Shown here: positions 9,001 through 12,000 of the stretch, piece by piece
How the letters are laid out: each line of letters opens with the position of its first letter
Numbering within the stretch: the stretch's first letter is position 1
Origin: a virus
Taxonomy: Duplodnaviria > Heunggongvirae > Uroviricota > Caudoviricetes
Virus record (IMG/VR): IMGVR_UViG_2703718787_000017
Reading direction: 5' to 3' (one strand)
Length of the DNA: 64,000 bases
Made by a program: the position numbers

Positions 9001-12000
9001 TCGTTAATGCCACCAATGGTCAGGTTAAGGCTTACGAAATTCGCCCGGACTTACCGCACCTGTTTCCTCATCCGAACCAGGCTGAATAAGTAACACCGCT
9101 CTTTAACATTGCTGGTCGTTCACCTCTAACAGGGTGAGCAAACATCAGTGGCAAACCCATTGGGATTGCCGCTTAACCCCATATCAATATAGGAAAATTA
9201 ACAAATGTCACAAACAAGTTACAGCAAACTGTCGCAGCGCGATATCGATCGCGCTGAAACGGATTTACTTATCAACCTGTCAGTTCTGACGCAAAGGGGA
9301 CTGGCGAAGATGATTGGCTGCCATGAATCGAAGGTCAGTCGTACCGACTGGCGATACATCGCGGCGATTTTATGTGCGTTCCAGATGGCATCTGATATCA
9401 GTCCGATCAGCCGGGCTTTCCAGCATGCCATTCGCGTTCATGCAAATAAAAAACGTCCGGTTGGGGCCGGACGTTCTGAGCAAATCCTGATGAATATCTG
9501 ATATTCAGGCAGGGCATGGAGCAATACACGGGAATAATTCTGCCACATCTGGAAGAATTTCGCCAGCAACAACACCAACCGCAGCAGCCTGAAGCCGATT
9601 GGGTTAACCCGGAGATACCGGGACCGTCTGTGAAGATGTGCAGTCACACCAATGTGCAGTCACACCAACCGCAGCAGCCTGAAGCCGATTGGGTTAACCC
9701 GGGAGATACCGGGACCGTCTGCGGTATGGAGTAAATCTTGTATGCGAGGGGACTATGCGTAATTACGCAACAATTTCACCTCAGTTCTGGTTAGGCGATA
9801 CAGGGCGAAAACTAAGGAAGTCTGGTCCGGAATGTATGGTAGTGGCGTTGTATATGATGACCTCGCCTCATTCCAATATGCTGGGCCTTTATTACCTGCC
9901 TGTTTTGTACATTGCTCACGAAACCGGACTTGATCCTGAAGGGGCTTCTAAGGGGCTTCAAATGGCTTGCGAGGCTGGTTTTTGCAGCTATGACCATGAT
10001 TCTGAGGTTGTATGGGTGCATGAAATGGCAGCATGGCAGGTTGGTGAAGCGCTGAAACCAGGCGATAACCGTTGTGCTGGGGTAAGAAATGAATATTCCG
10101 CGTTGCTGGAAAATCCTTTTTTATCATCCTTTTATGATAGATATAAGGATGATTTCCACCTGGATGTCAGACGTGAATCATGTCGGAAAATTGAAGCCCC
10201 TTCAGAGCCCCTTTCAAGCCAAGAACAGGAACAGGAACAGGAACAGGAAAGAGATAAAACCCTTCTGGTCCATGGCGAAAAAATCGCCACGGACCCACTG
10301 GTGGATTCTTGTCCCGTTCTGACTGAACGTCCAGGACCAGCTGGCATGACACCGGAAGCAGATTCCGGGCGTTGTGTGCAGCAGGTGCTGCACGTCGAAC
10401 CGGAGCAACAACACCAACCGCAGCAGCCTGAAGCCGATTCCGCGATGAGCGGGAAGCCGATTGGGTTAACCCGGGCGATGCCGGGACCGTCTGCGGGACG
10501 AGTTGATTATCCTGACGTGTTCGAACGGGTCTGGCGTGAATATCCGCATCGGGCAGGGTCAAACCCGAAGAAATCCGCGTTCAATGCCTGGAGGGCCAGA
10601 TTACGCGAAGGGGTGTCACCGGATGTCGTGCTGGATGGCGTGAGGCGTTACGCAAGATACCTGGAGGCTACCGGGAAAGCGGGAACTGAATTTGTTCAGC
10701 AGGCATCGACGTTTTTTGGCCCGAACAGGAATTTCGAAAATCCGTGGTCGCTGCCGAAGGCTGGCGCAGTCAGCCTGCGTTGCGTGAATCACATTTCTGA
10801 ACCGGACACCGAAATTCCGCCGGGTTTCAGGGGGTAATCAGCCATGAAAAACATTTCGACAGGAGGGATTCTTGAACGGGTGCGCCGTCTGGTTCCACCG
10901 CACGTTACAGCACCGTTCCGGACGACCGACGAGTGGCTGGAATGGCAACTGGCTGAGGGCCGGAAGCGCAGCGAGGAAGTTAACCGCCAGAATCACCAGA
11001 CGCGGGTTGAAAAAATCCTGAATCGGGCATCCAGCCGCTTCACAGGAAGTGCTCATTCGGGAACTACCGGGTGCAGAACGACGGTCAGCGCCATGCTCTG
11101 AGTCAGGCAAAATCCATCGCGGCAGAGCTGCATACCGGCTGCACGAATTTCGTGTTCAGCGGTAAACCTGGCACCGGGAAAAATCACCTTGCAGCAGCGA
11201 TTGGCAACTGGCTGATGGCGAAGGGGAGAAGCGTGATTATCGTCACCGTGTCCGATGTCATGAGCGTGTTGCATGACGGCTACGACAACGGCAAGTCCGG
11301 GGAAAAATTTTTACAGGAACTTTGCGGGGTAGACCTTCTGGTCCTTGATGAAATTGGCATGCAGCGGGATACGCGCAACGAGCAGGTCATACTGAACCAG
11401 ATCGTCGACCGCAGAACGGCATCACTGCGCAGTGTCGGGATGCTGACGAACCTGAATCACGCAGCTATGAGCACACTCCTCGGCGAGCGGGTGATGGACC
11501 GTATGACCATGAACGGTGGTCGTTGGGTGAATTTTAACTGGGAGAGCTGGCGGTCAAACGTTGGGCGTCAGGGTATGTGAGAATTTTTGACGAGGTAAAT
11601 TTTCGATGGAAACCGTATTGCATGCACTGAAAGCGATGGGTAAAGCCAATTCTGTTGAACTGGCGGCGCGGCTTGATATCAGCCGTGAAGAAGTTCTCAA
11701 CGAACTGTGGGAACTCAAAAAAAATGGTGTTGTTGATAAAACGGGTCACACCTGGTTTCTGGCTGTCGAAGGTGAATCCGGGGTAACCGAAGGGCAGGCA
11801 CTACAATCTGAAGCGCCGGATGTGGTAACCGAAGAGGTCGCTCCAAAAGTTAGCGCTGACATGATGATTGAGTTTATCGCTCAGGAGGGGGCTAAAACCT
11901 GTGAAGAAATAGCGGGTAAGTTCGGAGTTACCACTCGTAAGGTTGCTTCCACTTTGGCGGTAGTAACAGCAACGGGGCGCCTGGTGCGCGTGTCTATCAA

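Follow-up and report, generated by a model that had tools for sequence, protein, structure and literature searches.

Linker-derived repeats beside a prophage replication gene and a candidate origin of replication within it

Between cII and the replication initiator gene of a lambdoid Stx-type prophage (IMG/VR record IMGVR_UViG_2703718787_000017, class Caudoviricetes; 64,000 nucleotides, hereafter the window), a unit of 60-84 bp occurs twice in tandem, and it occurs a third time inside the gene itself. We consider it likely that the upstream repeats are a lineage-specific duplication of DNA encoding the linker of the initiator protein, which has since become a recombinationally active tandem repeat and probably serves no function. 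An earlier note on this DNA had described the unit as iteron-like and as possibly defining an unusual origin layout; the comparisons reported here point instead to an ordinary duplication, which leaves the understanding of lambdoid origins unchanged. The likely origin is inside the gene, where two clusters of an 11-bp repeat, GAAGGGGCTTC, are accompanied by an AT-rich dip and a purine-rich tract.

Anatomy, spread and recombination of the repeated unit

The repeat is real: the 22-mer CCGCAGCAGCCTGAAGCCGATT is found exactly at positions 9579, 9669 and 10418 and at no other site in the 64 kb even with three mismatches allowed, and it was recovered from none of 100 shuffled controls. All three copies lie on the plus strand and are placed as the earlier note had described. 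Upstream copy A (9565-9633) is followed by upstream copy B (9655-9724), and internal copy C (10404-10496) falls in the linker-coding part of the replication gene. Aligned in register, the copies are 89-100% identical in their left halves and 92% identical in their right halves. Copy A lacks a 23-nt segment and one G (CCCGG-AGATA), and because of the missing G the spacing between copies A and B is 90 nt in the left half and 91 nt in the right half. A perfect 16-nt tandem duplication, ATGTGCAGTCACACCA (2.1 units, 9636-9668, plus strand), detected by Tandem Repeats Finder (TRF), joins copy A to copy B. The 90-nt period itself is not reported by TRF, because there are only two copies with a differing spacer, and the repeat does emerge from repeat finding and pattern search. 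Each copy also contains the dyads GGGTTAACCC and CCCGG-N5/6-CCGGG, in agreement with the internal symmetry noted earlier.

Copy C carries an extra 23 nt (10440-10462) that repeats GAAGCCGATT; this internal duplication had previously been put at about 21 bp, and its actual length is not divisible by three. Only in its left half (QQHQPQQPEAD) does copy C share the frame of the open reading frame (ORF) that spans the upstream copies. Past the 23-nt segment the replication gene is in another frame (SGKPIGLTRAMPGPSAG versus WVNPGDTGTVCG), and at the boundary the internal peptide reads ...PEADS, versus ...PEADW upstream. The earlier note had taken the upstream and internal peptides to be the same.

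On sequence comparison, internal copy C is ancestral and the upstream copies are derived, because sister genes without any upstream copy carry the internal unit. In the sister lineage typified by locus L043, whose N-terminal domain has 78% amino acid identity with that of the window, the unit occupies the same place in the linker and none occurs upstream; genes of the type found in phage Tritos (locus L002) have another N-terminal domain, a homologous internal unit in the linker, and again no upstream copy. Both groups support the earlier reading of the upstream copies as a duplicate of part of the gene. Upstream copies, numbering one, two or three, are restricted to one E. coli/Shigella lineage. 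Searches with unit patterns found no upstream unit in relatives sharing the N-terminal domain (the L043 lineage, Fraca, Klebsiella, Acinetobacter and Ralstonia), nor was one seen in the Rhizobium, Enterovirga and L128 relatives, in which inspection covered the 120 nt immediately ahead of the gene and two in-gene stretches. Most relatives with the same N-terminal domain lack the unit altogether.

The linker from which the unit appears to derive is itself changeable. The motif GAAGCCGAT (EADS) occurs three to four times in it, with one repeat gained or lost between L043 and L058. Relative to the L043-type and Tritos-type genes, the linker of the window has undergone a compensated shift of -1 and then +1, so that 17 codons are read in a different frame (SGKPIGLTRAMPGPSAG versus QREADRVVPENTGRPVG; window 10440-10500 versus L043 2213-2262 and L002 2582-2631), which makes the sequence of the linker appear of little importance. 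In Tritos-type genes the extra segment measures 24 nt versus 23 nt in the window, and the linker is consequently read in another frame.

Upstream copy number is polymorphic among genomes at least 97% identical. The region is present in 81 complete E. coli genomes; the A-B junction occurs in 68 of them and is doubled in three of the 68, which accordingly have three copies, and the other 13 are one-copy forms or deletions. Two copies were found in 29 of 33 viral contigs and one copy in the remaining four (L019, L022, L029 and L040), the one-copy state being found also in G6/7 and L011. Strain 23CRST049 has three upstream copies, each bearing the 23-nt segment that upstream copies elsewhere lack, and all four of its copies read GATGCC where the window has GAAGCC; these shared features point to an exchange of sequence between the upstream and internal copies. 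In strain SW071611 an upstream copy is cleanly fused to the internal copy and the N-terminal half of the gene is gone (a pseudogene according to the Prokaryotic Genome Annotation Pipeline, PGAP). The deletion product (L009 2577-2720; the same in SW07163) has lost both clusters of the 11-bp repeat and leaves the pseudogene directly after cII. With copy-number differences in near-identical genomes, and with exchange and unequal recombination between copies, the unit behaves as a variable-number tandem repeat. It is also a recombination hazard that can delete the N-terminal half of the initiator, which is relevant to judging the inducibility of Stx prophages.

We consider the following history likely. 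The unit is DNA for part of a low-complexity, weakly constrained Q/P/E-rich linker between a predicted winged-helix domain and a putative helicase-recruiting module; a segment of this linker DNA was copied into the space between cII and the replication gene, beside a putative oop-like promoter, in a single E. coli/Shigella prophage lineage. The upstream copies form a tandem repeat of one to three copies, and homologous recombination keeps passing sequence between them and the internal copy. A probably artefactual ORF of 42 to 72 amino acids and the occasional loss of the N-terminal half of the gene are by-products of the repeat.

A candidate origin inside the initiator gene

The replication initiator gene (9755-10837, plus strand; 360 amino acids, phrog_1701) contains two candidate iteron clusters. 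Cluster 1 (GAAGGGGCTTC TAAGGGGCTTC; 9938-9959, plus strand) has an 11-bp period, with units at +185 and +196 of the gene; cluster 2 (GAAGCCCCTTC AGAGCCCCTTT CAAGCC; 10193-10220, minus strand) carries the same motif on the opposite strand, at +440 and +451. Between them is an AT-rich dip (10085-10180, GC 0.30-0.35), a candidate unwinding region, with a 13-nt inverted repeat at 10123-10153. Both 11-bp arrays were recovered independently by TRF. With one mismatch allowed, the iteron motif has only four matches in the whole 64 kb, three of them inside the replication gene. Cluster 2 is followed by a (GAACAG)4.5 microsatellite (10223-10249, plus strand; TRF) that encodes (EQ)4E in the initiator, as the earlier note had recognized in describing (AACAGG)4 at 10224-10247 as encoding (QE)n. 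Its length is polymorphic: three, four or five units occur among phages 99% identical to one another (alignment A1, columns 724-735), and the lengths of matches in E. coli genomes to a 626-nt query, 620-649 nt, fit such variation.

The layout is conserved far beyond the lineage that carries the upstream repeat. The 9-mer AAGGGGCTT (as an 11-mer, GAAGGGGCTTC) is present at 11-bp spacing, at +185/+196 and +440/+451 and sometimes also at +462, in 11 of 11 representative relatives (loci L004-L008, L043, L045, L072 and L126-L128), which come from E. coli, Klebsiella, Acinetobacter, Ralstonia, Rhizobium and Enterovirga and thus from gamma-, beta- and alpha-proteobacterial hosts. The dip recurs at +331 to +390 in five relatives, GC-rich Ralstonia included, and a purine-rich tract stands right after cluster 2 in every relative, as (GAACAG)n or, in the Rhizobium type, as (AAGGAG)n. 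In Klebsiella, Fraca and L043, cluster 2 runs in the direction of cluster 1 and encodes EGASKGL-like peptides; in the window and in the Acinetobacter, Ralstonia and Rhizobium types it is on the opposite strand, and the peptide becomes EAPSEPL, APSKPL or EAPPKPL. That the motif is kept while both its strand and the encoded peptide change argues for selection on the DNA. Cluster 1 encodes the conserved peptide EGASKGL, for which constraint on the protein may suffice, and only cluster 2 offers clean evidence at the DNA level.

Together, the clusters show features expected of an in-gene origin of the lambdoid kind: short repeats spaced by a helical turn (11 bp, two to three per cluster) within the initiator gene, conservation together with the DNA-binding domain at the level of DNA, and an adjacent AT-rich region. 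The N-terminal winged-helix domain of the initiator would bind the GAAGGGGCTTC iterons at 9938-9959 and, inverted, at 10193-10220, on either side of the AT-rich region, and the DnaT-like C-terminal tail would recruit a DnaC-type loader together with host DnaB.

Papers on the replication units of Stx phages (Eru types: PMC8044961; bioRxiv 10.1101/2021.11.24.469858) say nothing of iterons or repeats, and the Eru1-3 modules that they treat differ in gene content from the module of the window. No description of the origin of this replication module was found in the literature consulted, and a full-text search for the 11-mer returned unrelated primer sequences only. The comparison thus yields a candidate origin for the uncharacterised initiator family phrog_1701, with GAAGGGGCTTC iterons that extend from enterobacterial phages to those of Acinetobacter, Ralstonia and Rhizobium; the clusters are conserved across three classes of Proteobacteria, and studies of how Stx phages replicate can put them to a direct test.

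Other explanations for the upstream copies

The direct repeats could be the footprint or the substrate of module exchange, bracketing a cassette that determines origin specificity (the N-terminal domain together with its iterons). They do flank an interval, 9725-10403, that includes the winged-helix domain together with the two iteron clusters; of 5426 complete E. coli genomes, 1566 contain at least 80% of the C-terminal module with the unit, joined to other N-terminal domains; and the loop-out product of SW071611 and the exchange of sequence between copies are what such a system would yield. Exchange is nonetheless unlikely. No other type of N-terminal domain has an upstream unit (Tritos and L043 were checked), insertion by a single crossover should leave the old N-terminal domain upstream, where only 16 unrelated codons are found, and the sole loop-out product is a dead gene, with no reciprocal or swapped products found.

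That the units are iteron-like sites for the initiator or for a host factor, forming a split origin or auxiliary (handcuffing) sites that tune its firing, is quite improbable. Each unit has two dyads, and the iterons of lambda are also dyad-symmetric; every member of the lineage has one or more upstream copies; the Tritos-type copy keeps its dyad arms despite a different reading frame; and GAAGCCGATTC is two mismatches from the iteron GAAGCCCCTTC. Both of those mismatches, however, hit the invariant GGGG core of the iteron. The spacings, 90/91 nt and about 770 nt between units of 60-84 bp, are neither helical nor those of a compact array of short repeats, and GC content is 0.53-0.63 across 9550-9760 and 10390-10540, with no AT-rich neighbour. 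The unit does not follow the DNA-binding domain of the initiator. The earlier note had named related phages that lack the upstream copies and show no replication defect as counting against its reading; at the sequence level, phages that lack the copies do exist among relatives with the same domain (the three most distant having been inspected in part), and the internal copy goes with the C-terminal module even beside another N-terminal domain, as in Tritos, which has GTCACG repeats of its own. Upstream copy number varies from one to three, and in some members point mutations disrupt the dyads (GGGTTATCCC in L035, CCCAGG in 75/02, ...ATAGCGGG in copy 1 of 23CRST049).

Scans of the units themselves gave little. 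Single-strand DNA folds of each copy on both strands were not significant (z -0.5 to -2.4), which leaves a structured initiation signal or primosome assembly site in the unit unsupported. An Rfam scan of 9100-10900 returned no match in the repeats, promoter and terminator scans found the units empty save for a trivial 5-bp stem at 10488-10500, and there are no DnaA boxes in 9400-10900. The sequence GAAGCCGATT was considered as a degenerate iteron and rejected: both of its mismatches strike the invariant GGGG core, and Tritos-type genes, whose DNA-binding domain is a different one, contain it equally.

A coding role is very improbable. On this explanation the ORF across copies A and B (9516-9734, plus strand; 72 amino acids; phrog_2751, of unknown function) would specify a small protein with a repeated QPQQPEADWVNP, perhaps a mimic or competitor of the initiator linker, and its translation would be coupled to that of the replication gene. 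All close phage records annotate the ORF, it belongs to a PHROG family, the 90-nt spacing holds both copies in frame, the stop codon lies 20 nt ahead of the start codon of the replication gene, and copy B retains the ancestral frame of the linker (EADWVNPGDTGTVCG versus EADRVVPENTGRPVG). Against this, the length of the ORF tracks copy number, at 42 amino acids with one copy, 72 with two and 41 with three, the three-copy variant having a premature TAG, a different C-terminus and no gene called by PGAP. All four of the four substitutions in the unique first 20 codons are non-synonymous, so that, in this small sample, neither a conserved frame and length nor purifying selection is seen; those codons overlap the putative oop-like promoter, and the ORF has no Pfam or NCBIfam match. 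It is probably not a real gene: the repeat itself is the probable source of the "hypothetical protein" that annotations of 75/02 Stx, POCJ13 and about 80 E. coli prophages place between cII and the initiator gene. Retention of the repeats for some other function is just as improbable: they might be auxiliary binding or pairing sites on either side of the origin cassette, with looping from upstream to internal copies modulating origin firing or the oop promoter, or they might make the origin-specificity cassette recombinationally mobile among prophages that have the linker and C-terminal module in common.

Several points weigh against our preferred explanation, a functionless duplication of linker DNA beside an in-gene origin. 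The two-copy form prevails, at about 80-88%. No zero-copy member was found among the 81 genomes and 33 viral contigs of the lineage, and at least one upstream copy may yet be needed; a lone upstream copy has no tandem partner with which to be lost by recombination, however, so that a neutral history predicts the same absence. The searches gave no account of how the first upstream copy arose: when viral contigs were scanned with patterns for an empty site, or for an ancestral gene starting MEQYTGIILPHLEEFR, this lineage alone was returned, and in distant BLAST searches with cII and the DNA downstream of it homology stopped at or just past cII, with no empty-site relative (in Salmonella phage UPF_BP1 an unrelated small ORF follows cII). 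Both dyad arms (GGG...CCC and CCCGG...CCGGG) are kept between the internal copies of the window type and the Tritos type, in which loops and frame differ; this could mean constraint on DNA or RNA, the comparison being one of two sequence types only. Finally, binding of the initiator to the 11-mers is proposed from comparison only, and cluster 1 is confounded by the conserved EGASKGL peptide that it encodes.

The initiator, its gene neighbourhood and known systems

The initiator consists of an N-terminal domain, a Q/E/P-rich linker and a C-terminal module that ends in a DnaT-like tail. A structure model predicts the N-terminal domain to be a winged helix, consistent with DNA binding. The protein has no Pfam match at E<=0.01, Phage_rep_O (the lambda O family) included, and its best PHROG is 1701, 'DnaD-like helicase loader'. 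The C-terminal module (10356-10837, plus strand) has about 82% identity with initiator genes bearing other N-terminal domains, such as that of Tritos and the "phage replisome organizer" genes. The tail, VNHISEPDTEIPPGFRG (residues 336-360, 10760-10834), gave borderline matches to the very end of E. coli DnaT (PDB 2ru8, 6aep and 9zbt), and the last 60 nt of the gene are 95-97% identical to many 'helix-turn-helix domain' genes of E. coli prophages; together these two matches suggest a portable tail that recruits helicase or loader.

Over the region 9450-10900 the window is about 99% identical to the Shigella phages 75/02 Stx and POCJ13 (genus Diegovirus), and likewise 99% identical to the E. coli phages phiSTEC1589-Stx1c and PhiR5_2. 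To the left of the repeats lie a cI-like repressor gene (8047-8754, minus strand), a cro-like gene (8811-9089) and cII (9205-9501, plus strand; Pfam Phage_CII, E=4e-26), which borders the repeat region. The 3' end of cII carries a putative oop-like antisense small RNA (9446-9518, minus strand), to which a terminator scan and a weak Rfam match point; its strong terminator, at 9477-9450 on the minus strand, is formed by an 11-bp stem and a T-run. The Rfam family Hrs13 matches this RNA over its full length at a score under the gathering score (E=1.7e-4, 28 bits; scan of 9100-10900), and AgvB also matches it weakly. Its promoter would be expected at about 9525-9570, directly beside copy A. Downstream of the replication gene is a DnaC/IstB-type loader, present in the window as two ORFs (10844-11101 and 11071-11580). 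Compared with the intact 741-nt gene of 75/02 Stx, the loader gene at 10844-11580 is broken by a 4-nt deletion (TCGT) at about 11023; either helicase loading fails in this prophage or the four missing bases reflect an error in sequencing.

Among known systems, the nearest counterpart of the candidate origin is that of phage lambda, in which iterons lie within gene O and are followed by an AT-rich region. The GAAGGGGCTTC clusters resemble it in that the origin would lie inside the initiator gene, with repeats of about one helical turn in or beside the linker and an AT-rich or purine-rich neighbour, and the initiator resembles lambda O in having an N-terminal winged helix and a C-terminal helicase-recruiting domain on either side of a linker. 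The lambda layout does not fit the 60-84 bp unit. The candidate iterons, moreover, are 11 bp rather than 19 bp long and form two clusters, in the window inverted with respect to each other, about 230 bp apart with the dip between them, and the initiator differs from lambda O in its DnaC-type loader partner instead of lambda P, in its DnaT-like tail, and in having no match to Phage_rep_O.

The likeness to E. coli DnaT (primosomal protein I) is confined to the last 25 residues of the initiator (NCBIfam E=0.009), with borderline E values of 0.008-0.03, and the remainder of the protein is unrelated. Initiators of the Tritos type share with the window the linker unit and C-terminal module at about 82% nucleotide identity, the GAAGCCGAT repeats and both dyad arms; they differ in their own N-terminal domain, their own GTCACG repeats and the absence of an upstream unit. 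In phage Tritos (L002 2040-2400) dense GTCACG-type repeats are followed by a purine-rich tract, GATAAAGATACAGAT, a layout analogous to that of the window with different iterons. The upstream copies themselves are most like variable-number tandem repeats or segmental duplications evolving in concert, with which they have in common a copy number of one to three, a nested 16-nt duplication, substitutions shared within a genome and deletion by recombination. They are unlike such repeats in that one of the copies is coding sequence and stands apart from the non-coding array by about 770 bp, so that the array brackets an essential segment of the gene.

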